Part shown: positions 10,822-37,426 of the stretch, in pieces
How the letters are laid out: every line of letters starts with the position of its first letter
Numbering within the stretch: position 1 is the stretch's first letter
NCBI GenBank assembly: GCA_964400105.1
Contig: CAYNTG010000001.1
Span: 18,885 to 63,101, forward strand
Direction of reading: 5' to 3'
DNA: 44,217 nucleotides
From: an uncultured bacterium
GTDB lineage: Bacteria; UBP14; UBA6098
Position numbers and translations under genes: made by a program
The notes under the pieces: model-generated
The model's input: only the letters and a program-made list of their open reading frames with translations
What the model was told of the DNA's origin: nothing
Databases searched by the model: none

Positions 10822-10857
10822 CTTTACCTCCAAAAAGTGATTTTTATTATTTACCAA

Positions 10858-10885
10858 ATTATAATGCCAATTTAAAATCATGCAA
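10858..10885 (-). promoter_or_regulatory. Sigma70-type promoter of the type A CTD gene
   Basis: TTGCAT-N16-TATAAT. Confidence 0.55.
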
Positions 10886-12864: not shown

Positions 12865-15738
12865 TTAATGTTCTGTGATTTCCTCGATCTGAATAATAAC
12901 CCTGCGATTTGCCGCTCGCCCCTCCGGGAAGGCGTTGTTGCCGAGAAGAATCCTCTCGAAACGGCCAGCGCGATAACGCTCGACCTCGTATGGGTCTTTG
13001 TCGGCCATCCCCTGCCGGACGAGAGTGATGTTGTGTTCCGACAGCCACCTTTCCAGCTCGGAATCGGTGTCCACGCCGACGAATCGCCGCAGGTATCTTC
13101 GAATCGCCGTCTCTTCTTGTTCAGCTCGCTGCTCGCTGAGAATCTTGTTGCGTCTATCGGTTCCGATCGGGTCGGTGTGTCCGATGATCTTTATATTGAG
13201 ACGGAAACCGGATTTCCCTCCGAGGCTCTCGACCTTCTTCGCCATCGATTCGATGCGCGATTCGAGATATTTGCTAGTCGAATTTACCTCGTCGAAAGCA
13301 AATTGAACGATAATCGTGCTCTCCATTCTCCGCTCGATTCCCGCGACCCGGATTCGGATCTCCGGCGAGTAGTTGTTGCTGGTCTCCCCCACCGGATCGG
13401 TGGCCGATAGCCTCACGCGATAGACCTTTCTCGGATCGACGAGGTTGCCGTTTTCATCGCGCCAATCCCAAAAGACCTCCTTCGGCGGAAGGCCTTCACC
13501 GGATGCAAGCTCGATGATCTCGACCGAGTCCTGATCGACGATGTGAACCGAATAGCTTTCTACTATGCCCTCCGATATATCGATAAGAATTTTATTTCGC
13601 TTTTTATCTTCTGGAATCTCGAAATCCTTAGCGGCTAAGGCAGCCTCCTTTGGCCGATATAACAAGCCCTCGCCACTGCCGTAGATACGAATCGCTCCCG
13701 GAGAATCCTTATTCACATCGACAAGCACCGGGAACCGGCCATAATCCACATCGAGATCGGCCCCGGCGAGAAGCCTTGCCCTCAGGCCGTCGAGGATTTC
13801 GTATATCTCGCTCCACTCCCTTTCGGAGCGTGCATTCCCCTCGAAAATAAGCGATAATTCCGGGTTTCGATCTATGTAACCGGCGATCTTCGGCCCCAAT
13901 CCGATCACCGAATCGCGTAATGCCACGGGAAGAGTCGGTCCGTCCGGGAACTCGAACGTGAAAATTTCTCCGTCCAAACCATCGATCGCCGTGGACATCT
14001 CGACGCGGCGATTTTCCTGCTGCGCCCAGATCATATCCTCCATCGATTCATGCCTCGCGGAGATGCTTATGCGCGAAACGGTCGGGTCGTATCCGTCATG
14101 CGCCACCTCGACCGCATCAATATCCGCACCGATTTCGAGCGCCATTCGTTCGACCTCGATAGCGCGTCGAACGTTCAGGCTGTCGGTTTCCCATGTCTCA
14201 GGGTCGCTCGAAGGATCGATATACCCACTTAAAACGACTTTTATATCCGGATTCTCGTGCGTTCGCTGCACAATTGCATCGAGGACCGGGACAAAACGCT
14301 CGGCGACGGTAGTTTTTCCATTCTCGAAGAATACGACCGGCACGAGCGGCTCCTCTTCCGCGATGTAGGTCAGCTCCTCTATATCGAAATTGCAAAATTC
14401 AGGAACGATATCGGCCTCGATGGGACCGATAACATAAAACGGTATCTCGATCCGGTTGTTGGCGATGGATATCTCGGATATACTTCCACTATATAATGGG
14501 AACCGGCTTCCGTCGTCGTCGGCGGAGACGAGGAAACTATATCTTCCCGATGTCGGCGAAGCCCATTTCCATTCTATCGGAAAATCTTCGCCCGGTTCGA
14601 GCAATGGAACGGAGATCAGGTCTCCGACCATGAATGAATCCTCGCCCATAAAGAAGATCGACGTCGTCGCCTGATCGATGGGGATTTCGCCTACGTTCTT
14701 GATAATGGCTCGATAGCTTCTTTTCACACCGACCTCGGCAATTGGCAATTCCGGCGCGACCGGATCGGCGGCGGCCATGATATCCGGCAATCCCGTTATC
14801 GTCTTCGGCGAAGGCTTCTTCTTCGGCGGTCGAACACGCGGCGCGATGTTCGCGGTAATCCCGACCGAATGGGTTGTCAAGCCCGCTTTCGAAAGGCTTC
14901 CGTCCGGATAGACGAGCGCATAATCGAATGCGAGCGGAAATCTCGTTCGACCGGTTAGGCCTATCCCGAATGTCGCTCCCCCCGGTCGATATCCGGTTCG
15001 TAGTGAGAGTATTCCATCGAAAACCAGGAATTCGACACCGCACGCGCCATCGATGCCGCCATCCTCGGTCCATGAAATTTGACCGGATGGAACGAGCCAC
15101 TCAAACGCCGAATAGGCCGCACCCGCGACCAATTCGGTGGATTCGGTTTCTCCCTCTTCGGTGCCACCGGAAAGGGCGAGCGACGGCTTTACCAAGTTCC
15201 TTCCGGCGAATCCAAGATCGAAAGAAGAAGAGCGAAAAAGCACTCCGGCATCGAGGCCGAAACCGTCTGCCGAACTTCCGTAACGGTTGAACAGTGGGTC
15301 GTCATCAAAACGATAAAATTCGTCGATATGGTACTGGTTTCGGATCCATCGTCCATATATGCCGAGGCTCAATTCTTTCGTTCCTCTAACGCCGATGGAA
15401 TAGGCATATGCGGCACCGATATCGAATCGGTCATGGACGCCGGTGCCGAATTGGCGAAATTCGAGACCTATCGAGCCGAATTTTGCCGATGGAGGGACAT
15501 ATGCGATCCTCGAACCGAAGATATTTTCTTCCGAAAGCCCCAGCCAATATTTCGTGGCACCGACGAATATCTGATGATTACGATTGCCGGATATGGCGGC
15601 GGGATTTCCACCCATCCCCTCGGTTCCCTGCATAGACGGAACGAACACCCCACCCAAAGCTTCGAGGTGAGGTGTTTCGGAATAAGCGAGGGATGCGAGC
15701 AGAAGAAAAGGTATATATATTAGACCTTTAAGCCTCAA
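12865..15738 (-). CDS. Outer-membrane PorP/PorV-like beta-barrel fused to CARDB and OmpA-like domains (paralog 2)
   Basis: Signal peptide, NPAAI, amphipathic beta-strands to THSVGITANI, Pro/Lys linker, CARDB-like (IKNVG...LEPGE...EISIANN), internal OmpA-like (PVVFF...LSGYID...RRA...NRRVE), terminal OmpA (GHTDPIGTDRRNKILSEQRA...NRRV). Confidence 0.75.
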   Translation of the reverse strand: MRLKGLIYIPFLLLASLAYSETPHLEALGGVFVPSMQGTEGMGGNPAAISGNRNHQIFVGATKYWLGLSEENIFGSRIAYVPPSAKFGSIGLEFRQFGTGVHDRFDIGAAYAYSIGVRGTKELSLGIYGRWIRNQYHIDEFYRFDDDPLFNRYGSSADGFGLDAGVLFRSSSFDLGFAGRNLVKPSLALSGGTEEGETESTELVAGAAYSAFEWLVPSGQISWTEDGGIDGACGVEFLVFDGILSLRTGYRPGGATFGIGLTGRTRFPLAFDYALVYPDGSLSKAGLTTHSVGITANIAPRVRPPKKKPSPKTITGLPDIMAAADPVAPELPIAEVGVKRSYRAIIKNVGEIPIDQATTSIFFMGEDSFMVGDLISVPLLEPGEDFPIEWKWASPTSGRYSFLVSADDDGSRFPLYSGSISEISIANNRIEIPFYVIGPIEADIVPEFCNFDIEELTYIAEEEPLVPVVFFENGKTTVAERFVPVLDAIVQRTHENPDIKVVLSGYIDPSSDPETWETDSLNVRRAIEVERMALEIGADIDAVEVAHDGYDPTVSRISISARHESMEDMIWAQQENRRVEMSTAIDGLDGEIFTFEFPDGPTLPVALRDSVIGLGPKIAGYIDRNPELSLIFEGNARSEREWSEIYEILDGLRARLLAGADLDVDYGRFPVLVDVNKDSPGAIRIYGSGEGLLYRPKEAALAAKDFEIPEDKKRNKILIDISEGIVESYSVHIVDQDSVEIIELASGEGLPPKEVFWDWRDENGNLVDPRKVYRVRLSATDPVGETSNNYSPEIRIRVAGIERRMESTIIVQFAFDEVNSTSKYLESRIESMAKKVESLGGKSGFRLNIKIIGHTDPIGTDRRNKILSEQRAEQEETAIRRYLRRFVGVDTDSELERWLSEHNITLVRQGMADKDPYEVERYRAGRFERILLGNNAFPEGRAANRRVIIQIEEITEH

Positions 15739-15741
15739 GGA

Positions 15742-18675
15742 TCATTCCTGTTTTGTGAGGGTAAGAACCTCCAGCACGACGCGCCTGTTGGCGAGCCTTC
15801 CCTCCGGGAAGGAGTTATCGCCGACCAGCTCGCTCTGCCAATAACCACGTTCCCAATATCGCACGGCCATCGGATCTTTATAGCTTCGGCCTTCGTATGA
15901 AAGCTCCACCCGATGATCCTTCAGCCATGCTTCGAGTTCCACTATCGAGTTCAATTCGAGGATGTTCATCATTCCGTATTGGAGTCTGTCGAACTCCTTT
16001 TTTGCCCTTTCTATTGAAAGCTCCGTATTGGCCTTATCCGAGCCTACAACGTCGGTGTGGCCAATCACCGTCGCCTCGATTCTGGCATTTGGGCCGAGGT
16101 ATTTCGCGCGTTCGATCAACCTTTCGGCCAGCGCCTCGACGCGCGCCTCCAGATAATTCGATGTCGCTTCCGCCTTGCCGAAATTGAAACTGATAATGAA
16201 GAGTTCCTTGCGCTCCTCTTGCCCCTTCACCTCGACGCTTATCGGGTCCGATTGCGCGACGACCGATAGTCCGTATTTATCCTCGGAATAGACATCTATG
16301 AAATATCTCTTCTCCGGATCGGGTGGCTGACCGAACGACCCCAACCAACTCCATTCGAGTATCTTCGGAGGTTTTCCCGTGCCGGTTTCGAGCAGCGCAA
16401 ATGGGTCATCGGAACCCTCTTCGACAACCGAAACCACGAACGAATCGAGACCCACCTCGGATGCGATGGAATCTATGGTAATCTCGGTCTCGCCGAGATC
16501 CGAGAATTCGAGAGATTCCTTGCCGGAAATGGATCCGCGTGGCCTGAAGATCACGGCGTCGCCATCGAGAATAATTTCGACCTTCGGCACGTCGTTTCCC
16601 GGAGACCATTTCGATGTCAAAACCAACATCCGTGGATAAAGCCACTCAGGAATGCCATTCCGAACGAGCTTGCGGAATTCGTTAGCCCTGACGAAAGCCT
16701 CAAAATTGCAATCCTCCTGACCACAGCTTGCTACCCCGTTGAAAACGACGTTCACATCCTGATTTTGCCGGAGATAATCCAACTTTTCCATAATGGCGGA
16801 GATACATCCTCCGTCATTTTCTGCGCTCGGGCGGACATCGTCTTCCGTGTATTCAAATTCGCATATCTTCCCGCCATCCGGCAAGCGGATATCCAGCTCG
16901 ACGCTGCGATTCTCCTCGGAGATCATCTCGCGGAATTCGGAGGATGCGTCCTTCACCCTTTCTGCGGCCATATTATAACCATCTTCGATAACCACGATCT
17001 GTTTATCATTAGCCCCCATAGAAACCAGATAATCCCTTATCTTTTGCGCGCGCTGTTTCGCCAGTTGCGTGCCGCCATCGGCCTCTGTTGCGGCATCGTA
17101 ATAGCCGCGAATGTCGAGAAAGACGCCGGGGTTATCGTTAAGACGTTCTGCGACGATGCGAAGAACGTTGTCGAAGCGGCCTCGATCTATAAAAGTCGAT
17201 TTTTCCTTAAAGAAGACGACCGGTATCATCGGTGCCTCCTCCTTGACCTTCGATATTGTGGAAATTTCGAGCTTGTCCTTGCTCGTGCGAACCTTTCCGG
17301 TCATGACCGGCGGGCCGAAGCACGCGAGCTGCGTTTGCCCGGTGTTGTTTTCGAGATCGTATTCTAGGACTTTATTGTTCACCGACGGCACTTTGTCGCC
17401 CTTATCGTTCACGGAAGCGAACAGGTCGTAATATCCGGCCTCCTCCGGGCGGAATTTGATCTCGACCTCCTTCGTCTCGCCGGCGTTTAGCTCGTCTATC
17501 GTGATCTTCGCGGCGACAATCGGCTTTCCATCGACGAAGTAATAAAGAACCATCGGGAAATTTTTCGCGTCCATGTCGCCGTAGTTTGCGATCTTCGCTA
17601 CGATAGTCGCTTCGCTACCCGGCACAACATGTCCGGGCAATGCCTCGACCGAATTTTTCTCGACCGCGAGGTCGGTGATCACGCGCTCCGGTTTGCGCAT
17701 CCCGATGCCGATGGAGATCTTGTGCGTCTGGCCGATCTCGACTGGCGAATCGATCGGTATCTGCAAGGCATAATCGATTCCCGCATCCCAGTCGGTGCGC
17801 GAGCGGAAGGACAGCCCCATCGTGAACATGCTCCCCTTGCTATCACTTTCTGACGAGAGCATCGAGTTGAATCCCATGCGCGCGCCGATCATCTTCTCGA
17901 CGAACCACGACTCCGCGCCGACTGCGAAGCTCATATCGTCGGAGACTCCCGGATTACTCGTGATCGGAATCTCGACCTCGACCGCCGGCGTGATGTAATC
18001 CATGATATTATATGAGATTCCGGTGCGCACCTTGCGCGGAAGGGTTCCGCCCTCGACTCCCGCCCGCAGGGAGATCTCCGGTTCGTTGAGGTTATATGCT
18101 CGCAATCCCCACGAAAGCGGACCGTATTCGGCAAGCAGGGAGAGATCGCCGCCGAACGACATCTTCGAATAACCGTTTGCGAAAACGGGGTCGTTTGGAT
18201 CGAAATCCTCGGAGAAGTTATTATAATTGTAATCGATCCGATAGAGATTGGCGTTTATCGCCATGGAGATTTTTGCCTTGTTTTTGTATCTCCAAAGCTG
18301 CCGTCCGATCACGACCGAACCCATCTGCTGGTTATAGACGTCGTGATTGAAATAGCTCACGCCCAGCGCGAAGAAAAATTTGCTCCATACATATGGAGAG
18401 AAATACATCGATCCCTCCTGGAGAGCCGGGATATTCGCTCCAGAAAAATATCTTGTGTAGCTGCCGATCAGTTGGGTTCTCTGCAATCTCATCAGCCCTG
18501 CCGGGTTCGACGCGACAGAATTTACATCGTCCCCGATAGCGAGATATGCCCCCCCCAAACCGGCCGATCTCGCGCTTTCGAGCGAGATATCCGACTGTGC
18601 AAAACCGCATACGGCAATCAACATCACGAAGCAAACGGCTCCGAAAAATAACTTATTCATATTATTTTGGGTCAT
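15742..18675 (-). CDS. Outer-membrane PorP/PorV-like beta-barrel fused to CARDB and OmpA-like domains (paralog 1)
   Basis: ATG at 18675 after GAAAGGA; SARSAGLGGAYLAIGDD...NPAGL barrel start; NLNEP; CARDB (DLAV...IANYG...LNAGE...EYDLENN); OmpA motif GHTDVVGSDKANTELSIERA...NRRV. Confidence 0.8.
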   Translation of the reverse strand: MTQNNMNKLFFGAVCFVMLIAVCGFAQSDISLESARSAGLGGAYLAIGDDVNSVASNPAGLMRLQRTQLIGSYTRYFSGANIPALQEGSMYFSPYVWSKFFFALGVSYFNHDVYNQQMGSVVIGRQLWRYKNKAKISMAINANLYRIDYNYNNFSEDFDPNDPVFANGYSKMSFGGDLSLLAEYGPLSWGLRAYNLNEPEISLRAGVEGGTLPRKVRTGISYNIMDYITPAVEVEIPITSNPGVSDDMSFAVGAESWFVEKMIGARMGFNSMLSSESDSKGSMFTMGLSFRSRTDWDAGIDYALQIPIDSPVEIGQTHKISIGIGMRKPERVITDLAVEKNSVEALPGHVVPGSEATIVAKIANYGDMDAKNFPMVLYYFVDGKPIVAAKITIDELNAGETKEVEIKFRPEEAGYYDLFASVNDKGDKVPSVNNKVLEYDLENNTGQTQLACFGPPVMTGKVRTSKDKLEISTISKVKEEAPMIPVVFFKEKSTFIDRGRFDNVLRIVAERLNDNPGVFLDIRGYYDAATEADGGTQLAKQRAQKIRDYLVSMGANDKQIVVIEDGYNMAAERVKDASSEFREMISEENRSVELDIRLPDGGKICEFEYTEDDVRPSAENDGGCISAIMEKLDYLRQNQDVNVVFNGVASCGQEDCNFEAFVRANEFRKLVRNGIPEWLYPRMLVLTSKWSPGNDVPKVEIILDGDAVIFRPRGSISGKESLEFSDLGETEITIDSIASEVGLDSFVVSVVEEGSDDPFALLETGTGKPPKILEWSWLGSFGQPPDPEKRYFIDVYSEDKYGLSVVAQSDPISVEVKGQEERKELFIISFNFGKAEATSNYLEARVEALAERLIERAKYLGPNARIEATVIGHTDVVGSDKANTELSIERAKKEFDRLQYGMMNILELNSIVELEAWLKDHRVELSYEGRSYKDPMAVRYWERGYWQSELVGDNSFPEGRLANRRVVLEVLTLTKQE

Positions 18676-18769
18676 CGATGATCCTTTCAATGATTCCTAT
18701 TAACCTGTCAACCCCGAATTTGCGCAGCAACTTCACTATCGACATAAAGGTTATTATATAAATTCATAT

Positions 18770-21700
18770 TTACCTCGCAAGCACCGCCGTTCCGCCACAG
18801 TGCGTTTTTCTATCGGAAACACGACTGACGGAGAACATATACAGCCCGGACGGCATCGGCCTTCCGAAATCGTCGCAACCGTCCCAATCCCATTTGCCAT
18901 CGACATGCACCTCCCGAACCGGTCGCCCGTCGGCGGTCCATATCTTTATTATCGCCGTTTCGGAAAGCCCGGTAAAGATCGTTACCGCGTCGTAAAAGCC
19001 GTCGCCGTTGGGCGAGAATGGCCTCGGAACGGCCACGCAGCCTTCATCGGTTATAGTAAAACTAAACGTATAAGCATCTTCCATGATATTCGCAAAACCG
19101 TAATCGCCCGGATAGTCCCTCACCGAGCGAAGAACGACGGTCATCGAATCGGGCGAGCCGGGTCGAATCCCGATGGTTTCGAGATCGATATATATCCCCG
19201 CGCTGTCGGCATCGAATCCAATATCGCCGCTCGAATATGCCACTCCGTCGATCATAAGCTCGAACGAACCCGGATCGAAACCGCTTATCGTATCGCGAAC
19301 GAAAATCGATACACGATCGGGCGGACTCTCGAGAACTTCGTTATCCACAGGAATGGTGCCGACGACCTCCGGCGGATCGAAATCGGTGATAAAACCTCCG
19401 AGAACCGCATCCGAAGAATTTCCGAGGGCGTCCTCGCCATAGATCGAGATATCGTATAACCTTCCGCTTGTCCACTCGAAATCGGGATGGAACTCGACGA
19501 TATCGCCATCGAGCGTGAAGCCGGAGGAAGCGCCATATGAAATTCCGCCTATCGAGATAGATGTCGCGTCGAGATTCACGCCGTCGGAATCGGTAATCCT
19601 GATTCGTATCGGCTGGTTTTCGATATGCGTGATCGCGCCGTCGAACGGCTCGATCAGCTCGAAACCCGGACCCTCGCCATCGACATCGAACGACCACATT
19701 CGTGATGTAGAATTCGGTCCGCAGCTCGTTGTTTTGTCGAATGCCTCGACCTCGACGATAACCGCGCCATCGAGACCCAACATCGATGCGTCCATTGCGA
19801 GAGAATCGCCGAGAAGCTGCAAATACGGGCTATCGAGATAATATTCCAATCCGTTGATGGTCATCGAGATAAGATCGAGATCGACACCGGCAAAATCGTC
19901 CGCGACGCGCGCGGAGATAACGAGGCCCTCGCTCTGGACATTGCCGCCGTTCGCAGGATAAATCTCCTCTATTGTCGGCGGCTCGAAATCGAGCGTCGCC
20001 CCGAAACGCGATTGTTCAAAGTTGTTGCCGAGTGTGTCCCGAAGACCGGCGATGACGAATTCGTGCCATCCGTCCGACAAACCGCTTTCGGGGAAAGCGG
20101 CATAAAGCGAGTCTCCGCGAAGCTCGATTCCATCGGGATAACCCAGAACGACGGCATCGCAGGAAACGGTCGCATCGTCCGGAACCACCCCGAACTCGCT
20201 GCTTATCACGGCGAAAACCTCGATGGGATCGCACGCCACGAACGCCTCGGCTTCGGGATATACGCACTCGATCGAGGGCATGGCAGCATCGAATGTCAGA
20301 TTCGATAAAAGCTCACCTTCGTTCGGGCATCCGAATGCGAGGTCGGCGACATGAAGGCTAATTTCGATGTCCGAATCCCACGGCTCCGCCATCTCCGGAT
20401 TGAAAACGAGATTCGATCCATCCAAATCGAGGGCCGAATGCGAGAGATCATAAAATGCTCCATCGATCTCGACAACGATCGATGCCGGATCTATCCCGGA
20501 AGGTTCGTCCTCGATCCGCCATAATACTTTTTGAAGCGGGCCTCGTAAAACAGATTCCGGTGAAACAAGCTCGACCGCCGGCGGCTCGAAATCGAAGGTA
20601 AAGGCTCCGCCGACCGGCGTGTCGATATGGTTTCCGGCGCTATCCGCAACATCCATTAACATTATATTACATACTGCGCCGTGGGAGAAGTATCCGCTGT
20701 CGGGCGCAAATGTCAGGGTGCAAGAATCGAATGTAAGCTCCGCATCCGTCAGATCGATCGTTTCACTGCAGACGTTAAGCTCGACGGTCAAAGGGTCGAT
20801 CCCCTGCTCGTCGAATATATAGAACTCGAAACGCTGATCGGTGCAGCCGAGAATTGCGTCCTGCGGCGGTGAAAGAAGTTCTACTGTCGGTGGCGACCGA
20901 TCGATGTTATATGTCAAGCACTCGAAAGCGATGTTCGCGCCGCAACCTATCGAATTATCGACGGCATAGACACATACGCGAATGGTATCCAAAGTGAACG
21001 GATGGAGATCGTCCGTGGGCGCGGAAATCCGCGAACCGTCATATTCGAGACCCGTCGATTCGAGAATTCTATAACTGTTAAAACTTATGAAAGATGCGGC
21101 GATATCCAACCCGGAGGCATCGTCGAGGACGGCGAACGAGAATTTCTCCGGAAGCCCGGCAAGTTCCATCGAGCTATCCGGAATAGGGTCTTCGATTATC
21201 GGTGGTTCATTGTCCCAATAATATACAAGCGATATTGGATCTGTGATAGCGTTGTAAAATATATCCATCACATTCTCGACCGAAATCGCTACGGAATCTC
21301 CTGCGAAAACCGTGCGTGGAAGATCGAAGAAGAACGAATCGCCCTCGAATCGCGCATAATCCGAGCCGAGTTCGACATCGATACCATTGACGGATATATT
21401 CATAGAATCCGTATTTATTCCATCTTCATCGTGAATAGAAAAACAAATCGACAGCGTCTCGCACGAGATGAAAGAATATTCCGGCACGTCCGGCGGAGAT
21501 TGAATCGGTGGAGCGCATGGGACATCGATGTCCCACGAAAAACCGGACAGCACGTTCGCGCCGCAGAGCACGGCCAAATCGGCTATATCGACCTCGACGG
21601 AGATCGGATTACACCCGATCAGGCTTAATCCGATGTCGCCCGGATAGATAATGACCGTATCGGCCGAGATAGTGAGATCGGGCGATGTTGCCGAAAGAAG

Positions 21701-24007: not shown

Positions 24008-24016
24008 AATACACCT

Positions 24017-24038
24017 CCGATTTGCCGACGCAAATCGG
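24017..24038. other. Intergenic hairpin overlapping the RBS of the 18770-24007 gene
   Basis: CCGATTTGC-CGAC-GCAAATCGG, perfect 9-bp stem, no T tail. Confidence 0.55.
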
Positions 24039-24057
24039 TCGTTTGACGGTTCCCCAA

Positions 24058-27000
24058 CTACCGTGCTAAAACGACCGTGCCGGAACAGAGAACCTCGCCT
24101 CCTTGCTCTATCACATATATATAGACCCCTGGACGAACCGGGACTCCATTGAAGTCGTATCCGTCCCAAACAAATTTATGCGCGTCGCGACCAAATATCT
24201 CAGCCATCTGGCGGCCCTGCATATCGTAAATTTTTACCACGCCGTCGATGTCGATGCGACCCGGATAATCGAATATCACCTCGTCGTTATAGCCGTCCGC
24301 CGGCGGCGGCGGTGTGAACGGCTGCGGGCTTGCATGACACCTCGTAACGGGCTTGATATATTTAACACACATATAGTAATCGTCGAGAGAATTTTCTTCG
24401 CAGATTCCGGCCATATCCTGCGTATGCGCGATGCTGAAGAAGAGCGAATCGTCGCGTCCGATAGAGAGGCCTGCGGCATATCTCAAGTCGAGAATCAGGG
24501 TTCCGCTTCCCGCGTCGTATCTGAGCGCCGGTTCGCTGACGATATCGTAAAGATGAACCTGTGTCGCACCTCCGACGATCTGATTTACCTGAAGGATAAT
24601 CTCGTCCGGATCGACTCCGGCATCCACGTCGTCCAGATGAAAAACCACCGAATCGAACTCGGCGACATCGACGTTGGTGTCGATCTCGGCGATACACCAT
24701 GCGACCGGCGGGAAGAAGTCCATATAGAACTCCCAGCAATAATCCGTCGCCTCGTTGCCCCACCTGTCTATGACTCCGCGAACGCACGCCTCGACCGTCT
24801 CGCCATGGCTCCAGCAATCGGCTGTATCCGGTATATAATAAAGGTAATGGCTCCCGAAATGGTGGCCGGAGAAACCGGGGTTCCATGTAACCTGCGAACT
24901 GGCGGTGGAATATGGTGTGCCGTTCACCTCGAGGACGAGCATATCTGATATAAGCGTATCCTCATCCTGAAACTCGATCTCGATAGACTGTTCGGGGCAA
25001 AGGCAGCTGACATAGCTACTGTCCGGCGCAATACTGACAACGATGACCGGCGGAATGTCGTTATAGACGACGCACCAATGCGTATCGGAAATAGCGGCCT
25101 GCCGGTCGTCCGGGTTATCGAAATCGAAATCGTTGTCGTGCGACCAGACGATATATCCGAAGAACATGCCGGAAACGAGATCCGCCTCCGGAATAGCCCC
25201 CGGCGCGGTCGAAGCCCAGTAAAGGCTGTCGAAATCGGGACCGGAATATTCGACCACGGAATCGATATCCATCGGAATCCAATAGGTGTTCGTCGCGGTG
25301 AAGAATTCGACCATCAATCCCTGGCCGGTAGTGTCCGTCGATGCGTCGTCGAACACGCCGTCGGCGTCGGAAAGCGCGAGCGTGATGAAGAATCCGTCAT
25401 AATCCGCGCGAACGTAACACGAATCCGGGATCACGATCTCCGGGCCGGTCGTGTCGTCGTCGCCTATTGTGAAGCACCAATCGATCGTAGTGTCGTTCGG
25501 CGGGCAGTTGAACGGCTCGCCTATCGTCGTCGAATCGGAGATTATCAGATAAACGCATATCTCGGAGAACTCCGTGAAATCCGCGTCCGTCGAGAATATT
25601 ATCGTGTCGTCCGACCATGAAAGCTCGGTCGCGGGCCAGGGGTAGCTTCCCCACGGCGTGCCGTCCTCGTCGATACGGACACTAACGTTATCGTGATTTA
25701 TCCATGAAATCCCGTCGATGAGATGCGCCATGATATCCGGCGACCAATCTATAGAGATCTCTCCCGACATCGGTGAAATGAAATCCGTTTCCGGAGGCGA
25801 AAGATCGACGACCGCGCATAGATTCAGGCTTCCGAAATAATTATTTCCGAGCGAATCCGGCCATTGGATTATCTCCAGGCAAACCGTATCTCCGTCATCA
25901 TAGGACGAAGGCGGCCACAGAACGACCGTATCCTCGTCGGCCCCATCGGGACGCAGCTCGAAAAGCTCAGGACTGTCGCTCCATTTCACGGTATCGCCGT
26001 CCCACAGCACGATTACTTCGGACGTGTCGATACGCTCCGGGTCTATCGTGTGAATCCAGAACGCGCCGGAATCGCAGAACGTAACCATCGGATCGATAGT
26101 CGTGTCCGGGAAGATAATCGACAAACGCGGGCCGTCGGCGTTTATGTAGAATGTGTAGCATTCGGTGGCCATGACATTCGGGTCGCAGATAACTGTCGAA
26201 TCCGCAAGGCTGTCGAGGCAGAAAATGACCGTATCGCCACCGCCGAACGGTAGCGACGGCGAGACCGACGGATCGAAGAAGACCGTGTCGCCATGCCAAT
26301 AAACATGCGGGTCCGAAACAGGATAGGCGGTTCCATCTATGTAGATAATCGCAGTCGAATAATCGAGAATATAGCTCGTATCGGTAACGTGGAAACGGAT
26401 CAATGGATACGGCGTCGCGACCTCGGATAGATCATCGGGCCAGTAATCCAGGATGTATGGCGCGTCCCAATCGATAACGAACCAGCATGTGTCTTCGAAC
26501 CCGAACGCCGGATTGCCGAGAACGTCGTTCATATTGTCGATGGTAACCCAGATACTACCCGGAGCCTCGGGCGCACCCGGCTCGAAAAGCAGGGTGCTGT
26601 CGTGGTCGATAAGCGTAACCTCCGGCGAATCGATGTTGTAACTATGCACAAGTCCGCGTTCGCCATAGCCGATAATAATGCTGCTTGGATTGACACCCTC
26701 GACGTCGCGTATCGACCATCTAAATTGGAACGCTGTCGTGCATGAGATTCCGAGTCCGCATTCGTCCGGCTGCTCGAGCGTGACGATCGGGCCGTCGCCG
26801 GTATCGACATCGAAGCTCCAGCAGAACGTGTCGAGAAGCGCGGAAAGCATATTATTCGCAAGACATCCCGTGCTGTCGCAGGCCTCGATAAGACATATTT
26901 CGACCGGGCCCGGTTCGAGCGTGTCGCCCGCCAGAACCGCGCTCCAAACGAGCGTGCCGGGCATCGCTATAGTCGATTCGGGAATCCATGTTAAAATGCT

Positions 27001-30000
27001 ATCGTCATAAGTGAATGTATCGCTATTGATTGTGAGAACAAAGCAGTCCGGCCTGACGAAATTCAGGCTGTCCCAAATGGCAAGTCGAACCTCTGGATGG
27101 TGATCGATCACAGTTCCGGTCGGCGAAAGATATTCGACCACCGGCGGTTCGACATCGACGGTCAAATCCCAGCATGACGCGGTCATTGCATATCCGAGGC
27201 CGTCCTCGACACCAGAAATGCATATCTCGACATCGCCGATATCGAAGATTGTCGCAGGGCTGAATACGAGGACATATTCGACCGGGTCCCATGATAATTC
27301 CGGGCCGGGGTATGCAACTGGAACGCCGTTCACGGTGAAGCTCATGCCGGTAACAACCACGCCGTCCATGTCGTCGAAATCGAGAACGATTGTATCCTCA
27401 GGACATACCAACCCCAACGGATATGTGATTTCCGCCTCCGGCCCACCTTGAACGACCTCGAAACACCATGTCGTGTCGAACGTCGTGCAAGCTGGACATG
27501 CCGCAGCGTAGTCGCAGGCCATATCAACATGGATACAGGCCGAATCGCCGGTGGTAAGAATACAATCCAATGGATCGAAGCTGAATATCAGCGTTTCGGG
27601 AATCCCCGCCACCATTCGCCATTCGATGGTATCCGGTGCGGGCGAAGTGGCCGATACAAACGCACATGGGCCGCCGACCACGGAAACGGTAACGGAATTT
27701 GTGTCGATCCCCGCGATGTTGTCGGGGAATACTATATACACCTCCGGCGTGAAGCTGAATGCCTCATCGAACGGATGATCTATTATGAATTCCGGTGGAG
27801 TGTAATCATAGACGAAGTCGAACGAGTTCGGCTCCTGAGCGTTGCCGATCATATCGATAACCTCGATGCCGATCTGGAAGCGGCATCCCTCCGCCAGTAT
27901 CTCCGGCGGAACGAAATAGAGCGTATCCGCATCGGGTCCGTCGCGATAATCGACGATCATCCCGGAATCGGTTATGCCGTAATCGACGCTGTCCATAACA
28001 CATGATCTATACCATAAGGTAAGGCTCGATATGTCTATTCCGTCGATATCGAAAATCTCGAATTCAAGCGTATCCGGCTGTTCGCAACCGATGACCCCGT
28101 TTCCGCTCGGCCAAAGATTGATAATATCGGGGCCTCTTGCCGCAACAGGAAGTCTGCACGTGTCGGACCAGGCGATGCAATTCGGTTCGCAGATATCGGC
28201 CCAATCGCAGACATCGAGCACCGTGAAGATAATCGTGTCGCCGCCGAACCACCACGGGTCGAGTTGAGGAACCAGCGCGGTGTTCAAACCGACGGAATCG
28301 GTCGAGCCGGTGAACATCCATGCCGAAACGGCGTCATCATAGCAAATCGTGTCCCATTCCGTCGTGGTTCCGGGGTGCAAAAATCCGATGCACCATGCGA
28401 GGGTATCGACCCTCCCCCATATGTCGTGGGCGTTGAACCAAATAACCGGAGTGTTATCGCTTATGGAATCGTCAACGCATGAAGGTGTCGTCCAGATCGA
28501 TTCCGGCGGCGTTTGATCGATGATAAATTCATATTCGTAAGGCCCGCTGGAAACGAAATTCATCAGATTATCATAGGCCCAGACAGTAACGCCGATGGTA
28601 TCCTCCGATGAATATGGCACATCCGGGATAACGATTAGCGTTTCCGGGCGATTATGAAGGTTCCCGGACGGCCAGACATAATGGTTCGAGGTTCCAAAAA
28701 CATAGCTGCTGCAGGTAACCTCTATCGACGGCCAGTATATTCCGTCGGAGTCGGACAGGGCTATGACCATCGAATCGACCGTCGGGCATGCCGATATCCA
28801 TCCGTCCTCCGGCATGGCCGCATGCGGGATCGGCCCGTTAGAAGCGAGCCAGAATGTCCAGCAAGTCTGGCAATGGTTGAGGTCGCAACCCACAAGGGTA
28901 TCCGTGTCGTCGGTGTTTCGGATGCAGATATCGACCGTATCGCCACCGGAAACCCATAAAGATGCATCCAATAGGCCGACATTGAAGAAGGCCGTATCCG
29001 CGACCCAATAGACGGCGCCGGAGGTATCCGAGACCCAAATCCAGCTCGATCCGCCATCGAGTGAAAACGCGAGACTATCGCCGAGAACCGGAGCAAAATC
29101 ACGCGGGACATAGGACCAAATAAGCGGCGTCCGCGTGAATATCTCCAAGCTATCGGTGGGATAGAAATCATCAGGGCATGGATTCGTTGTATCCACGACA
29201 ACACACCAATTATCCACGCCCTCGTTCAATATACCGAACATATCTTGAATTCGATTGAACTCGACGCAAACCGTCTCGCCGACGGCTGCGAATGTGGATA
29301 GGTCGATATTTAAGGTTACCAGGAATTCGTCCGGTTCCAGAATCCACGAGGTGTCTATTACACCGGGCAAATCTCCCCAATCGATAACGGAATCGGGTGC
29401 GCCCGGCGAATGAATAACGAACCGGATCGTATTGGCATTTAGACCGTCGTCGTCATAGACCCTATATGTAAAGCCATTCGGCGGATCGAAACAACTGAGA
29501 TACATCTTCAGCGGCTGCCTTCGGCTGATCATAGGACCGCCGGCACTGACTCGAATACACCACTCATCAAAACCCATCATCCCCTCTGCGAATGCCGGTG
29601 AACAACCACCCAAACCCATATAATCGAGGGAATCCTCCAGATGGGAAATTCGGATACATATCGTATCGCTGTCCACTATCCAGTCCAGGCTCGGGATCGG
29701 AAGGTTCCATGTGTCGGCATCCCAAATAACCCTCGAATCGGAACCTTTTATTGTATCGATATCTCCCGAAGGCCTCGTGAAAAGTTCGAGCAGTGTATTC
29801 GAATGGCTGAACCAACCCGCGCATCCGGGTTCCACAACGAAGGTGATAGTATCGAAAGGCGAAACCGGCGGGATCGGTAATGTCGGAGTGGGACTCCAGG
29901 TCAGAGGATCGCTGAATGGTGGAATAGTATCGAGCATGAACGACCACGAACTGTCCAGCGTAATATTGCCGAGAAGGTCGTTCGCCTGAACAAGCTTGAC

Positions 30001-32877
30001 CGTAACGCTATCCGGACAAAGCGGAATCGGGTCCGCCGGACCGATATAGCATCGGAATGTATCTCCGAATTGCGTTACCGGGAACATAAGCCCGGCAATC
30101 TGAATGAGAACGGTGGTAGGATCGACCTCCGATATATCGCTGATAAGCACATCGACCCAACCAAGAGGAACACATGCCGAGATGCTGCCGTCCTCAGGCC
30201 AAAGCAGCGAGGCTTCCGGTCCTATGCCATCGACGAAATAGTCCCAGCAAATCGAATCACCAGCGAGCGTATTCTGCCCGCAAAGCTCTGCAACGTCGTT
30301 ACACCTTGTAACACAGCAATGCACCGTATCGCCGTTGTCGAGCGGGAAACCGCTCAGTGCGTTCGAATATATCAGCGTGTTATCGACTCCGAGCGAATGG
30401 ATGCTCGTGTTAATGGCTGCAATGTCGTATTCGAAAGTCGTCGCATCGACAATGAAACGCCAATTCAGGCTTAATTCGTCAATTGGCGAGTCGTCGGAAA
30501 CCTTTACACTGCAGGCGAACGAAGGGGATACCCAGCTTCCAGGAATAGGCGAAATAGAGAATGAATCCGGCATCGGGCCAAGCGTATCGACCATGAAATT
30601 AAAGACGACCGGAGCCATCACATTGCCGACACCATCTTGGATTTCTTTTACATCGACTCGAATCGCTCCGCTGGGTAAATCCACCCCGTGAATAAAGATG
30701 GTATCGCACATCCATTCGACATCGCAGGAAGACGTGGACAGCGTGCATGTCGGACCGGGAATGAAATTAACGATGCCAGCCGTCGTATCGACACAGGTGC
30801 TGTCGTGCACCGCAAAAATGACAGTAATCGCAGTGTCGCACGAGATTATCGAGAGGTTCGACGGTTGAATCATCTCTATGGTCGGCGGATTGCAATCCAC
30901 AAAGAAACTCCAGCAGCTATCGTAAACCCAGTTCGGGCCGCAGAAACCGTCAGTGAGGTCTGCGGCGGAATCGAGGCATACGTCGACCCATGCCTCGCAG
31001 GGGAAGTCGAACGGCGGGGTGTGCATCAAGAGTTTCGTCGTGGGATTATAATACGAACCCGGAAATGAAGCATCGTAATGGACGCCGTTTATCGTGTAGA
31101 ATATCTTTGTCGAATCCACGCCGGAAATGTAATCGCTCAATCCGATCTGGATCATCGGCGCCGGCGATGCGATACTCGTATCCGGCGGCGGATTAATAAA
31201 CCATATCTCCGGAGGATCCTGATCGACAAGTATCGTGTCGCAAATATACAAAGCAGAACAATCGTTGAAATCGACGGCATGAAGAACGCATATTATTATC
31301 GAGTCGCCGGTTCCATAGGACAGATATGAAATAGTGTCGAGCGGAATCATCAGTGTGTCCAAAAGATTACCATCACTGTGTCCCCATTGGAAAGCGGCAT
31401 CGAATGTCCAATCGACTATAGCGAATGTGTCTAAGACCGAATTTTTAACATCGATTCGAACAACCGTCTCAGCGAAGTTGAGACCGACAGTGTCCTCCGT
31501 TTCATCGAAAAGAACCCAGAGCTCCAGACCACTTCCAGTAGTGCAGGCCGTGAATGAATAAGACGGCTGAATAAACTCGACATCCGGCCCGATTCCACTG
31601 ATATATGGAATATCGAAACAGCTAGTCGTTTCCGCATTCGCTATCCCCGGTGTCGAGGTGCTGCCCGAGTATGTTATACAAAATGTTCCAAAGGTGTCCG
31701 CGACGGAGTTGAAAAGCCACCTTGGTGAATACAAGTCGCCGGGAGCCATATCGAGATACTCGACGCAAAGGGAATCGACATAAATGTCTAATGGGTCTAT
31801 GACCATCGTGGCCAATCCGGAATCGTAGTCCACGCAAACCCATACCGTGTCGAACGGCGTTAGACCGCTAGAATTGTTTTGAATATCCGCCCAGAATACC
31901 TTTGGATTTCCACCGAGGCTGCAACCCTCGGCAGGCCAATTGCTACCGTAAGGTGCCAAAGAAAGGTCTCCGATCACGGACGAGATATTGCCAAAACCAT
32001 ATTTTGTAATTAAATCAAGTGTGTATCCCGCTGGAAACGTTCGCGGGTTCCAACGAAGAAGGACACCACTATTAGCATAATCCCCTCCGGCAAAAGTTAT
32101 ATCGATATCGAATTTTGAGGGTATCAACATAAATTCATTTCCGTAAGCAAAAAAATCCGGCGGCGTCGCGCCCTCGATACCAATAAGACCGGTCGCAACA
32201 AGCTGATCCAAATCCGAATCGAAAAGGTCAAATTCTGCCGCTACAAACGCCCCGGGAATCGAACCCTCATAGACGCTGTTCGTATCGGCACTGTTTCCGG
32301 GGATCGAAACCGGAGCATCGTCCCTGCCGTTGATATTGATATCCCATTTATGCTCTACACCAATAGAATGCGGAAGCATCCCACTGTTGACAATGTGATA
32401 TTTAACCTTAATAACGCCCAAACTAACAAGCGTTGTTTCCGCATCATCGACTACGGAAATTGTATAATGGTCAGGGGTAAAAAACTGATCGATCTGAACC
32501 TCTTCGCTGCCGGGAAGTGGAAATATCCATCTGTTCTGTATCGTGTTTGTGGAGAGCAGTTTTTTGGGATAATCCGGTGCCATGTAATCGTAGAGGTCAT
32601 GATCGGGAGATGGAACGATCCCGACCCATGCATATATCTCGCCGTCGATCTTGAAAACCGGATTCGAGGAAGGATTTGCGAGCAAAGCCTCGGTCGGAAA
32701 TTCGAATGTAAGTTGTTCTCCGGTGGAATGCTTTCCGACACCGAAACCGCCTCTAGTCGAGTCGACCCGCGCCTCGCAATCCCAGTCCCATACGGAGAAA
32801 TAGGTTTGTCCAAAAACACCACCACACAAAATTAAAAAGAGCGTCGCTACATACGAAATTCTAACCAAACGGACCAC
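24058..32877 (-). CDS. Giant secreted repeat protein (~2940 aa) with gliding-motility-type (type B) CTD
   Basis: GTG at 32877 after GGAGG; signal peptide; about 21 Cys-rich Ig-like modules; CTD PQPFTP...DGYND...IYDMQGR...WDG.DFNG..V.PGVYIY...GTVVLAR. Confidence 0.87.
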   Translation of the reverse strand: MVRLVRISYVATLFLILCGGVFGQTYFSVWDWDCEARVDSTRGGFGVGKHSTGEQLTFEFPTEALLANPSSNPVFKIDGEIYAWVGIVPSPDHDLYDYMAPDYPKKLLSTNTIQNRWIFPLPGSEEVQIDQFFTPDHYTISVVDDAETTLVSLGVIKVKYHIVNSGMLPHSIGVEHKWDININGRDDAPVSIPGNSADTNSVYEGSIPGAFVAAEFDLFDSDLDQLVATGLIGIEGATPPDFFAYGNEFMLIPSKFDIDITFAGGDYANSGVLLRWNPRTFPAGYTLDLITKYGFGNISSVIGDLSLAPYGSNWPAEGCSLGGNPKVFWADIQNNSSGLTPFDTVWVCVDYDSGLATMVIDPLDIYVDSLCVEYLDMAPGDLYSPRWLFNSVADTFGTFCITYSGSTSTPGIANAETTSCFDIPYISGIGPDVEFIQPSYSFTACTTGSGLELWVLFDETEDTVGLNFAETVVRIDVKNSVLDTFAIVDWTFDAAFQWGHSDGNLLDTLMIPLDTISYLSYGTGDSIIICVLHAVDFNDCSALYICDTILVDQDPPEIWFINPPPDTSIASPAPMIQIGLSDYISGVDSTKIFYTINGVHYDASFPGSYYNPTTKLLMHTPPFDFPCEAWVDVCLDSAADLTDGFCGPNWVYDSCWSFFVDCNPPTIEMIQPSNLSIISCDTAITVIFAVHDSTCVDTTAGIVNFIPGPTCTLSTSSCDVEWMCDTIFIHGVDLPSGAIRVDVKEIQDGVGNVMAPVVFNFMVDTLGPMPDSFSISPIPGSWVSPSFACSVKVSDDSPIDELSLNWRFIVDATTFEYDIAAINTSIHSLGVDNTLIYSNALSGFPLDNGDTVHCCVTRCNDVAELCGQNTLAGDSICWDYFVDGIGPEASLLWPEDGSISACVPLGWVDVLISDISEVDPTTVLIQIAGLMFPVTQFGDTFRCYIGPADPIPLCPDSVTVKLVQANDLLGNITLDSSWSFMLDTIPPFSDPLTWSPTPTLPIPPVSPFDTITFVVEPGCAGWFSHSNTLLELFTRPSGDIDTIKGSDSRVIWDADTWNLPIPSLDWIVDSDTICIRISHLEDSLDYMGLGGCSPAFAEGMMGFDEWCIRVSAGGPMISRRQPLKMYLSCFDPPNGFTYRVYDDDGLNANTIRFVIHSPGAPDSVIDWGDLPGVIDTSWILEPDEFLVTLNIDLSTFAAVGETVCVEFNRIQDMFGILNEGVDNWCVVVDTTNPCPDDFYPTDSLEIFTRTPLIWSYVPRDFAPVLGDSLAFSLDGGSSWIWVSDTSGAVYWVADTAFFNVGLLDASLWVSGGDTVDICIRNTDDTDTLVGCDLNHCQTCWTFWLASNGPIPHAAMPEDGWISACPTVDSMVIALSDSDGIYWPSIEVTCSSYVFGTSNHYVWPSGNLHNRPETLIVIPDVPYSSEDTIGVTVWAYDNLMNFVSSGPYEYEFIIDQTPPESIWTTPSCVDDSISDNTPVIWFNAHDIWGRVDTLAWCIGFLHPGTTTEWDTICYDDAVSAWMFTGSTDSVGLNTALVPQLDPWWFGGDTIIFTVLDVCDWADICEPNCIAWSDTCRLPVAARGPDIINLWPSGNGVIGCEQPDTLEFEIFDIDGIDISSLTLWYRSCVMDSVDYGITDSGMIVDYRDGPDADTLYFVPPEILAEGCRFQIGIEVIDMIGNAQEPNSFDFVYDYTPPEFIIDHPFDEAFSFTPEVYIVFPDNIAGIDTNSVTVSVVGGPCAFVSATSPAPDTIEWRMVAGIPETLIFSFDPLDCILTTGDSACIHVDMACDYAAACPACTTFDTTWCFEVVQGGPEAEITYPLGLVCPEDTIVLDFDDMDGVVVTGMSFTVNGVPVAYPGPELSWDPVEYVLVFSPATIFDIGDVEICISGVEDGLGYAMTASCWDLTVDVEPPVVEYLSPTGTVIDHHPEVRLAIWDSLNFVRPDCFVLTINSDTFTYDDSILTWIPESTIAMPGTLVWSAVLAGDTLEPGPVEICLIEACDSTGCLANNMLSALLDTFCWSFDVDTGDGPIVTLEQPDECGLGISCTTAFQFRWSIRDVEGVNPSSIIIGYGERGLVHSYNIDSPEVTLIDHDSTLLFEPGAPEAPGSIWVTIDNMNDVLGNPAFGFEDTCWFVIDWDAPYILDYWPDDLSEVATPYPLIRFHVTDTSYILDYSTAIIYIDGTAYPVSDPHVYWHGDTVFFDPSVSPSLPFGGGDTVIFCLDSLADSTVICDPNVMATECYTFYINADGPRLSIIFPDTTIDPMVTFCDSGAFWIHTIDPERIDTSEVIVLWDGDTVKWSDSPELFELRPDGADEDTVVLWPPSSYDDGDTVCLEIIQWPDSLGNNYFGSLNLCAVVDLSPPETDFISPMSGEISIDWSPDIMAHLIDGISWINHDNVSVRIDEDGTPWGSYPWPATELSWSDDTIIFSTDADFTEFSEICVYLIISDSTTIGEPFNCPPNDTTIDWCFTIGDDDTTGPEIVIPDSCYVRADYDGFFITLALSDADGVFDDASTDTTGQGLMVEFFTATNTYWIPMDIDSVVEYSGPDFDSLYWASTAPGAIPEADLVSGMFFGYIVWSHDNDFDFDNPDDRQAAISDTHWCVVYNDIPPVIVVSIAPDSSYVSCLCPEQSIEIEFQDEDTLISDMLVLEVNGTPYSTASSQVTWNPGFSGHHFGSHYLYYIPDTADCWSHGETVEACVRGVIDRWGNEATDYCWEFYMDFFPPVAWCIAEIDTNVDVAEFDSVVFHLDDVDAGVDPDEIILQVNQIVGGATQVHLYDIVSEPALRYDAGSGTLILDLRYAAGLSIGRDDSLFFSIAHTQDMAGICEENSLDDYYMCVKYIKPVTRCHASPQPFTPPPPADGYNDEVIFDYPGRIDIDGVVKIYDMQGRQMAEIFGRDAHKFVWDGYDFNGVPVRPGVYIYVIEQGGEVLCSGTVVLAR

Positions 32878-35942: not shown

Positions 35943-36060
35943 AAGGGATTACAATTTATAAAATTTTTCCGGTTTCGCAAGGGCAAGCTTGCAACTAGAG
36001 ATTATTGTTTCACCCTTCGATGAAAAAAAATCGGTCGAGGAATATTTCGGTGAGATCGTC

Positions 36061-37134: not shown

Positions 37135-37426
37135 ACAATGCTATTCGATATTCGTTCGATGTAAAGTATAATCGCCAATCCCTTGCAAGACAATGGATTG
37201 TCCGTTAAATATTGAGGTGGAAAACTCCGATTATCTGCTATATGCCAATCGGCGCGAAATAGGGATTTTTCAGGATTCATTAGCTATTTTTTCATATAGG
37301 ACAATATTATTTTGCAAATTTTTCTATGTCTTTTAATCATACATATTCATTTTCAATTGTCAACCTATAACCGACACATATCGCCACTAAACTCGGTCGT
37401 TGGCAGTCATATCCGCCTGCCGGACT

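Follow-up and report, generated by a model that had tools for sequence, protein, structure and literature searches.

In a stretch of 44,217 nucleotides from an uncultured bacterium of the UBP14 lineage (contig CAYNTG010000001.1, positions 18,885 to 63,101 of the forward strand; we call this whole stretch the window), four genes that we name g1 to g4 stand one behind the other on the minus strand. The first two encode giant proteins with C-terminal domains (CTDs) that resemble those of type B cargo of a type IX secretion system (T9SS), and the other two encode proteins in which an outer-membrane barrel continues into OmpA-like domains. We read this as an operon for two long, static, wall-tethered surface fibres that would be exported by type IX secretion, and we put the probability of this reading at roughly 0.7.

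The closest described systems come from Porphyromonas gingivalis and Flavobacterium johnsoniae. For P. gingivalis, the published account has the type B protein PG1035 bound to PorP and PorP bound to PorE, which attaches to peptidoglycan through its C-terminal domain (PMC9143113). Three conserved side chains of PorE (Asp576, Asn584 and Arg591) are reported to hold the peptidoglycan stem peptide at its diaminopimelic acid residue (PMC7192894). In F. johnsoniae, type B cargoes are described as needing a SprF-like barrel that is encoded just downstream, and five operons combine a PorE-like gene with a type B cargo and a SprF-like shuttle; the authors speculate that these five encode static, wall-anchored complexes (PMC12618676). 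Mobile cargoes such as SprB are reported to have no PorE-like gene in their operon (PMC12618676). Other phyla of the Fibrobacteres-Chlorobi-Bacteroidetes (FCB) group have been named, in the introduction of another paper, as possible hosts of a T9SS (PMC11285876). Our literature search, which covered titles and abstract openings with supplements outside its reach, found no paper on T9SS or type IX secretion in Zixibacteria and no description of a fused shuttle and anchor.

The F. johnsoniae operon Fjoh_3952/Fjoh_3951/Fjoh_3950 is, by its published description, laid out like the one in the window, with a big type B cargo, then the barrel, and an OmpA-type wall binder in the same operon (PMC12618676). 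Barrel and wall binder are two distinct proteins in the F. johnsoniae operons, whereas the locus in the window combines both in a single polypeptide of ~960-980 aa that also contains a CARDB spacer and has two to three OmpA-like domains. The locus differs further in having no TPR or propeller, in having two cargoes and two barrels per operon, and in a host that is not a member of the Bacteroidota. The PG1035-PorP-PorE complex, as described, also has a 14-strand PorP that holds the type B CTD protein and an OmpA_C-like bridge to peptidoglycan, with the triad spacing that we find here. PorE, however, combines TPR, beta-propeller and CRD domains in a lipoprotein, and g3 and g4 are not built in this way. 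The SprB of the SprB/SprF pair of F. johnsoniae is reported to travel along the cell, whereas a barrel that is joined to domains for wall binding would be expected to stay in place. PorV, which PDB structures 8gl6 (chain F) and 6h3i (chain F) show bound to a substrate CTD within the SprA translocon, is different again, as it is a free type A shuttle without a periplasmic extension.

We read the locus as a fused version of cargo, shuttle and anchor because all three functions of the published systems are present, the second and third of them on one chain. We infer secretion through SprA, binding between CTD and barrel, the topology, and an adhesin or fibre role for the products. In this scheme g1 and g2 would pass the inner membrane via Sec, and their type-B-like CTDs would direct them through the SprA translocon across the outer membrane. 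A PorP/SprF-like 14-strand shuttle barrel, either g3 or g4, would capture and retain each CTD, and the periplasmic CARDB spacer with the OmpA-like peptidoglycan-binding domains would fasten each barrel to the wall. A single polypeptide would then join the cargo, the outer membrane and the cell wall, and the product would be immobile fibres tens of nanometres long, perhaps 50-100 nm by an estimate from the ~12 Ig-like repeats of g2 and the 20 or more of g1. Such immobile fibres fit the published idea that the CTD and the shuttle decide between gliding and staying put, and g1 and g2, kept throughout the phylum, are foremost candidates for this uncultured group's main surface structure.

The operon and its barrel-OmpA proteins

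The original prediction described four co-oriented genes behind one promoter, and this layout stands. The open reading frames (ORFs) all lie on the minus strand, and the intergenic gaps in g1-g2-g3-g4 are 50, 94 and 3 nt.

24058..32877, minus strand: g1, giant cargo, 2939 aa from GTG 32877
18770..24007, minus strand: g2, giant cargo, 1745 aa from ATG 24007
15742..18675, minus strand: g3, barrel-OmpA fusion, 977 aa from ATG 18675
12865..15738, minus strand: g4, paralogous barrel-OmpA fusion, 957 aa
32993..33020, minus strand: sigma-70-like promoter upstream of g1, TTGACA-16-TATATT, 11/12 consensus, by consensus match only
18753..18780, minus strand: possible internal promoter-like site at the g2-g3 junction, TTGCGA-16-TATAAT, 10/12, by consensus match only

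The proteins g3 and g4 are 26% identical over their full length. Both exceed the Pfam gathering scores for PorP_SprF (PF11751; 23.3 bits for g3, which is marginal, and 33.1 bits for g4, against 22.3) and for OmpA (PF00691; 48.8 bits in two stretches for g3 and 32.9 bits for g4, against 27.2). The predicted pair of paralogs with a barrel and OmpA-like domains is supported by these matches and by a structural model of g3 with a 14-strand barrel. CARDB lies over its gathering score of 22.7 in g3 and under it in g4 (16.4 bits, E 0.01). The g3 model, made with AlphaFold2 (AF2) from 16 sequences, has a mean pLDDT of 74.8 and a pTM of 0.44, and it divides the chain as listed here, with residues of g3 (protein P0003) counted from TTG 18690.

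17698..18597, minus strand: g3 outer-membrane barrel, residues 32-331, with 14 strands in residues 72-331 (DSSP of the model)
17410..17670, minus strand: g3 CARDB Ig-like domain, residues 341-427, PF07705 43.9 bits, E 2.9e-11, a beta-sandwich in the model
16885..17220, minus strand: g3 first OmpA-like domain, residues 491-602, PF00691 best stretch 508-574
16228..16869, minus strand: g3 middle region, a putative alpha/beta domain (608-709) and Ig-like domain (735-821), from secondary structure of the model only
15754..16212, minus strand: g3 C-terminal OmpA-like domain, residues 827-979, with the peptidoglycan-binding triad

When we compared the g3 barrel with the PDB using Foldseek, FadL-family channels and the T9SS shuttle PorV came out on top (for PorV, 8gl6_F with E 2.5e-8 and TMt 0.58, and 6h3i_F with E 7.8e-8 and TMt 0.60). 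The fold alone assigns no subfamily to this barrel because the FadL chains rank as high as PorV. At the profile level, 25 barrels from the phylum aligned with two Bacteroidota PorP_SprF proteins at an hhalign probability of 96.8% and E 2.8e-10, over 246 columns and template positions 36-307 of 320. An outer-membrane barrel with an even number of strands has both of its ends facing the periplasm, so the CARDB-OmpA part of the chain should be periplasmic.

The C-terminal OmpA-like domain carries the triad GHTD880 ... N888 ... R895 in g3 and D856/N864/R871 in g4. This spacing of 8+7 residues is the same as that of the PorE side chains named above, and the triad is invariant in all 16 of the aligned sequences. 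In the first OmpA-like domain of g3, Asp532 and Arg547 are likewise invariant (16/16), and 13 of the 16 have Gly where the triad has Asn. The middle region had no family match. With OmpA-like domains and an invariant triad on the barrel chain, the proposal that shuttle barrel and anchor are one polypeptide is supported. The chains are not simply PorE, as the PorE model NF052230 matches only their OmpA part (23.1 bits in g3 and 17.4 bits in g4, against a cut-off of 600); no TPR, PD40 or CRD was matched in g3 or g4 in the Pfam scan, and the consensus of the barrel fusions has no conserved lipobox Cys. Close homologues of g3 carry only the names 'OmpA family protein' or 'hypothetical'.

Cargo proteins, gene linkage and secretion machinery

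Both g1 and g2 consist of a signal peptide, a head, a stalk of Ig-like repeats of ~100 aa and a C-terminal CTD. The repeats are divergent, with ~12 of them in g2 and about 20 or more in g1. Besides the C-terminal domain, the Pfam scan found no family in either protein at E up to 0.1, and it detected no SprB repeats. The two CTDs, which stand at the extreme C-terminus of proteins with a Sec signal peptide and adjoin a PorP/SprF-like gene as type B cargo should, are located as follows.

24061..24360, minus strand: g1 CTD, last 100 aa, type-B-like, PFTP..DGYND motif, end GTVVLAR
18773..19072, minus strand: g2 CTD, last 100 aa, type-B-like, PRPFSPNGDGFYD motif, end GGTAVLAR (12 orthologues aligned)

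We collected a family set of 20 g1 and g2 CTDs from 12 loci. CHU_C matches all 20 of them (best E 1.3e-12) and the type B model TIGR04131 matches 18 (best E 1.6e-11), and Pfam Por_Secre_tail matches only one. By these profile matches, the CTD family as a whole is closer to the type B model than to the type A model. The alignment has the common motifs PNPFTPNGDGxND ... WDG ... and a terminal GTVxLAR, which we take to be a type B signature; the first motif is present in distant g1 orthologues and is degenerate in the g1 of the window. One paralogous cargo of the same genome, on contig C13, is over the type B cut-off with 44.8 bits.

The orthologues of g1 in relatives, which are 2274-2999 aa long, occupy the same position as g1. 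The head of g2 is ~450 aa long and is 37-65% identical among 7 orthologues. A profile of this head had 0 matches to PDB sequences at E up to 1, and its AF2 model (pLDDT 62.4) gave no informative fold match with Foldseek (TM-scores <=0.28, root-mean-square deviations >13 Å). The nearest clusters in the ESM Atlas are unnamed hypothetical proteins. The heads of g1 and g2 are similar to each other. In one relative, an ORF of 372 aa that lies upstream of the g1 orthologue (L077 859-1974, plus strand, G005 contig C10) also resembles the g2 head, with 27% identity over 250 aa and E 4e-21. The head appears to be a reusable module because the heads of g1 and g2 and this ORF resemble one another.

The composition of g1 and g2 bears on whether the product is a fibre at all. 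By the same mechanism, the two proteins might form a surface layer or sheath throughout the phylum instead of adhesive fibres. The operon is kept wherever it is readable, as would be expected of a core envelope structure; g1 and g2 are built almost wholly of Ig-like repeats, and their heads have no recognisable enzyme or lectin fold. Against such a coat, we recognised no self-assembly or lattice domain in g1 or g2 in the Pfam scan, and we consider it very improbable. We keep to wall-tethered fibres in what follows.

The genome that contains the window is 2.38 Mb in 149 contigs and is 94.8% complete. Full-length relatives of g3 occur in metagenome-assembled genomes (MAGs) that are labelled either UBP14_UBA6098 or Candidatus Zixiibacteriota, or that are unnamed, which agrees with the earlier suggestion of a lineage outside the Bacteroidota. 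Every one of the 26 genomes of the phylum, which carry the label UBP14 or Zixibacteria in their records, has barrel fusions, with 5-21 matches to the g3 profile each, and most of these matches span full-length frames of 950-1000 aa. The order g1-g2-g3-g4 is kept in all seven of the other genomes in which enough flank was read, and among the loci with the full order the protein identity to the window is as low as 26-32%. The full order is found at L030, at L035 (same contig as L081), in G002 (L076 and L058) and in G005 (L077 and L063), and also in G016, G015 and G009, where L078-L080 were used for g1 and g2 and the coordinates of profile matches for g3 and g4. Loci L031-L034 hold a partial cluster up to the end of the contig or flank, and L036 has g4 only. 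We take this conservation to speak for a functional unit made up of two cargoes and two barrels, and the layout of two barrels for two cargoes that was first noticed in the window thus extends across the phylum. As to which barrel goes with which cargo, we dropped a pairing claim, as the alignment scores of 12 single cargo-barrel pairs against the g1 and g2 CTDs and the g3 and g4 barrels were inconsistent.

Linkage of the same gene types is also seen outside this operon. A search of the window's own genome with BLAST and the PorP model gave seven barrel-fusion genes (919-981 aa), of which two are on contig C1, one each on C82, C17, C75 and C61, and a distant one on C13. Six of the seven have as their direct neighbour a giant protein with this type of CTD; on C1, C82 and C75 it is encoded upstream of the barrel, and C17 and C13 have it downstream. 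In four distant genomes with 20 barrel loci between them, 12 of the loci have an ORF with a type-B-like CTD that ends directly upstream. A survey of gene neighbourhoods had been proposed for this locus, and within this phylum such a survey shows conserved linkage both as the four-gene order and as adjacency of CTD and barrel in relatives.

The genome also encodes a T9SS translocon. SprA was found in the own genome with 487 bits (631 with neighbouring stretches), over the cut-off, and it is present in 25 of the 26 genomes of the phylum. PorU is over its cut-off as well, with 563 bits, and beside porU on contig C9 there is a PorV-like gene with 95 bits, under the cut-off of 250. More than 40 proteins of the genome have CTD-like ends of a type-A-like kind.

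Points against the reading and its alternatives

Several results weigh against wall-tethered type B fibres, and they concern the classification of the CTDs and barrels, the gene linkage and the secretion motor. For the CTDs, the curated cut-offs are 27 bits for CHU_C (PF13585), 35 bits for TIGR04131 and 23 bits for the type A model TIGR04183. The window's own CTDs, in g1 (CHU_C 23.4 bits, TIGR04131 18.1 bits) and in g2 (TIGR04131 19.6 bits, E 7.5e-4; CHU_C 19.4 bits, E 1.2e-3), are significant yet under both of the curated type B cut-offs. The g1 CTD is an exception to the family in that its type A score of 23.0 bits is above its type B score, and this score equals the type A cut-off. Within the family set, the type A model matches 14 of 20 CTDs (best E 2.1e-5) and the generic FlgD_ig model matches 19 of 20. 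The original prediction of gliding-type CTDs is thus upheld for the family by CHU_C and TIGR04131, and the window's two copies fall under the cut-offs, with g1 slightly better on type A. As for the barrels, g4 reaches 43.9 bits (E 1.9e-11) on the PorP family model TIGR03519, against a cut-off of 90.55, and g3 has no match to this model in the NCBIfam scan. The best NCBIfam model for g3 is the PorV/PorQ model NF033709, with 56.3 bits against a cut-off of 90.

This last match points to a different role for g3 and g4, as PorV/PorQ-type partners. The cargo would then go to the PorU sortase and have its CTD cleaved, the fibres would be linked to lipid or glycan or be released, and the OmpA-like part would merely fix the shuttle in place. 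Such a role is also in line with PorV being the closest of the solved T9SS chains, with a g1 CTD that reaches the type A cut-off at 23.0 bits, and with the PorU and the more than 40 type-A-like CTD proteins of the genome. The genome has a separate PorV-like gene adjoining porU on contig C9, however, and a shuttle that is fixed to the wall would be unable to move between translocon and sortase. Dedicated one-to-one gene linkage is, in the F. johnsoniae work, reported as a hallmark of type B cargo and SprF-like barrels (PMC12618676). The family CTDs also score better on type B than on type A (best E 1.6e-11 against 2.1e-5). We judge a PorV/PorQ-type role to be improbable, and we continue to favour PorP/SprF-like barrels that retain their cargo.

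The gene linkage has gaps too. The barrel on C61 of the own genome has no type-B-like neighbour, and 8 of the 20 barrel loci surveyed in distant genomes have none within the stretch that was read. From the cargo side, a hidden Markov model (HMM) built from the six CTDs found next to barrels in the own genome splits off 14 proteins (73-123 bits) from the rest (<=51 bits), and eight of these 14 type-B-like cargoes, on contigs C4, C26, C38, C46, C47 (two), C62 and C89, have no adjacent barrel. These recall the type B cargoes that are described as 'orphan' in F. johnsoniae and share one shuttle (PMC12618676). By analogy, the barrel on C61 might serve several cargoes as an 'orphan' shuttle, as is described for Fjoh_1677.

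The unpaired barrels would be easier to understand if g3 and g4 were general staples between outer membrane and wall, similar to OmpA or OprF, that are co-expressed with the cargo and bind no CTD specifically. Two to three OmpA-like domains per chain, the 5-21 profile matches in every genome of the phylum and the 8 of 20 loci without a type-B-like neighbour are all in keeping with staples. But the barrel is PorP/PorV-like and not of the 8-strand OmpA type, and a gene with a type-B-like CTD abuts 6 of the 7 copies in the own genome and 12 of the 20 in the distant genomes. The four-gene order, moreover, has been kept at 26-32% protein identity. We think that general staples are quite improbable here, and that the barrels more probably serve the cargo beside them.

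For the secretion motor, we found GldM in 0 of the 26 genomes of the phylum, and PF12081 had no match in the own genome; as a control, two Bacteroidota MAGs matched the GldM model with 334 and 276 bits. GldL was also found in 0 of 26 genomes, with a model that had no positive control, and GldN had no match in the own genome. Matches to GldK are generic, all under the cut-off and mainly to the C-terminal half of the model. We rejected them as evidence of PorK because they are under the cut-off and the model also rings in non-T9SS controls, including Bacillus subtilis. The Gld models were built on Bacteroidota, and divergent homologues may escape them. With GldL and GldM in 0 of 26 genomes, GldK below the cut-off and GldN unmatched, the usual T9SS motor was not detected. 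The T9SS implied by the original prediction was detected in part, as SprA, PorU and a PorV-like gene were found and GldL, GldM and GldN were not matched. The PorK/N association does not apply as such to this locus because neither GldL nor GldM was found and GldK stayed under the cut-off. By these profile searches, the T9SS translocon of the phylum seems to lack a detectable motor of the PorLM type.

A stronger version of this would be that a type B branch of the T9SS is hard-wired to the wall and runs without the PorLM/GldLM motor and the PorKN ring, which we hold to be doubtful. The shuttles seen in the phylum are mostly fused to peptidoglycan-binding domains. If this version were true, there would be another way of energising or organising SprA-dependent export. 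The static fusion of barrel and anchor could then be ancestral, and the mobile SprB/SprF of Bacteroidota could have arisen by uncoupling of the anchor. The relatives in which a barrel is fused to TPR, OmpA, LysM or CRD would be natural fusions that point to a contact between PorP and PorE. A phylum with SprA, PorU and abundant CTD cargo and no detectable GldL or GldM is a natural test case for what the T9SS needs its motor for.

Related fusions, gene starts and neighbouring genes

Fusions of shuttle and anchor are not unique to this phylum, because Bacteroidota MAGs carry PorP with OmpA and PorP with SPOR beside CHU_C cargo. The ESM Atlas has a Bacteroidota cluster annotated as PorP_SprF plus OmpA, and we checked two Bacteroidota MAGs that were reached by chance. 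In a Saprospiraceae MAG (L083), a 603-aa protein combines PorP_SprF (207 bits) with TSP_3 and OmpA (58.6 bits) and comes directly after a protein with CHU_C and SprB repeats. In a Flavobacteriia MAG (L082), a 507-aa protein with PorP_SprF (218.5 bits) and SPOR (34.2 bits) lies between two CHU_C proteins. Like g3 and g4, these two have a barrel and a peptidoglycan-binding domain on one chain beside a CHU_C cargo. Unlike g3 and g4, they are shorter, have a single wall-binding domain and no CARDB, and match PF11751 at ~200 bits rather than 23-33. What is new, then, is a variant, the fused and doubled shuttle-anchor that is conserved in an unstudied phylum; the principle of the fusion itself is not new.

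We also searched a barrel+CARDB profile over 1.84 billion protein representatives and took the best 150 matches. Among these 150, 97 carry the barrel, 23 of them shorter than 400 aa and 38 of 750-1000 aa. We scanned 37 of the barrel proteins with Pfam, namely those that were extended without a match to the OmpA profile or were of middle length, and found PorP_SprF in 24, OmpA in 10, TPR_2 in 10, CARDB in 6, LysM in 2 and CarboxypepD_reg in 1. The TPR, CRD and OmpA extensions of these barrel relatives are domain types of PorE.

The link between PorP and PorE that anchors type B cargo to the wall has so far been drawn from pull-down experiments in one species and, in another, from gene neighbourhood. 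A PorP-like barrel naturally fused to OmpA-like domains throughout a phylum is independent genomic support for joint action of the two. Fusions to OmpA or SPOR also occur in Bacteroidota MAGs, and fusions to TPR, LysM or CRD in the barrel relatives.

Matches to g3 from outside the phylum in Ignavibacteria, Kapaibacterium, Flavobacteriia and Saprospiraceae share only the OmpA-like half with it, and we rejected them as barrel fusions. Those from Ignavibacteria and Kapaibacterium have a PD40 propeller and two OmpA domains and no barrel, the Flavobacteriia match is an ordinary OMP_b-brl with OmpA, and the Saprospiraceae match is OmpA only. The Ignavibacteria and Kapaibacterium proteins (L039, L047 and L052), which have ~895 aa and are similar to residues ~780-970 of g3, have a PorE-like look. 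One Kapaibacterium genome (G028) had no match to PorP_SprF or GldM. Leads from the ESM Atlas are clusters of PorP-like barrels with TPR or with LysM, which are commonest in Elusimicrobiota, and clusters of CHU_C with FlgD_ig and OmpA, which are commonest in Spirochaetota.

The longest frame of g1 opens at TTG 32889. GTG 32877, which lies 5 nt past GGAGG, is likely the start from the sequence around it. In g2, GGAGG is followed 6 nt on by the ATG start, and g3 has an alternative start at TTG 18690. The TTG start of g4 is 3 nt past the g3 stop and 8 nt past AGGA, and g4 is probably translationally coupled to g3. In a 20-kb scan, the site at 33020-32993 ranks first among 28 promoter-like sites, where shuffled sequence gives a mean of 18.2 sites (standard deviation 4.4), and the site at the g2-g3 junction is weaker. 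With a consensus site of the sigma-70 type and Shine-Dalgarno sites at the locus, the promoter and ribosome-binding grammar that had been described for it is supported. Shine-Dalgarno-like words precede 32% of 1297 first in-frame ATGs, compared with 9% in a control window; this is a rough count, as it takes the first in-frame ATG of open frames >=250 aa with spurious frames included, and it agrees with the earlier remark on ribosome-binding sites. The GC content around the operon is even, at 0.46-0.55, and we saw no signs of mobile elements around it in the window. Parts of the window are contained in salt-lake metagenome runs, with a share of 0.28 in one run and <=0.17 in four, and the run that is the likely source bears the label marine metagenome; none of this is evidence of habitat.

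The other genes in the window are the following.

11779-12441, minus strand: multi-pass membrane protein just downstream of g4, no Pfam match
11097-11786, minus strand: secreted 229-aa protein downstream of g4, no Pfam match
12846-12818: promoter-like site upstream of the gene pair at 11097-12441
9232-10881, minus strand: 549-aa protein with a type-A-like CTD, Por_Secre_tail E 5.6e-5 (under the cut-off), end VVYMK
7454-8077, minus strand: ExbB/MotA-family gene
5882-6505, minus strand: TonB gene
1265-5805, minus strand: MacB-like ABC efflux set with FtsX/MacB_PCD, ABC ATPase, HlyD-type adaptor and TolC-like OEP
33039-44168: housekeeping genes upstream of the operon (glutamate racemase-like, pseudouridine synthase, ScpA, response regulator with HD domain, tRNA-guanine transglycosylase, radical SAM/SPASM protein and, on the plus strand, HypF)

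The order of the gene pair just downstream of g4 is kept in four relatives, at 47-59% and 38-55% identity. The 549-aa protein with the type-A-like CTD is also kept a few kb downstream of the operon in three relatives (L030, L033 and L035).

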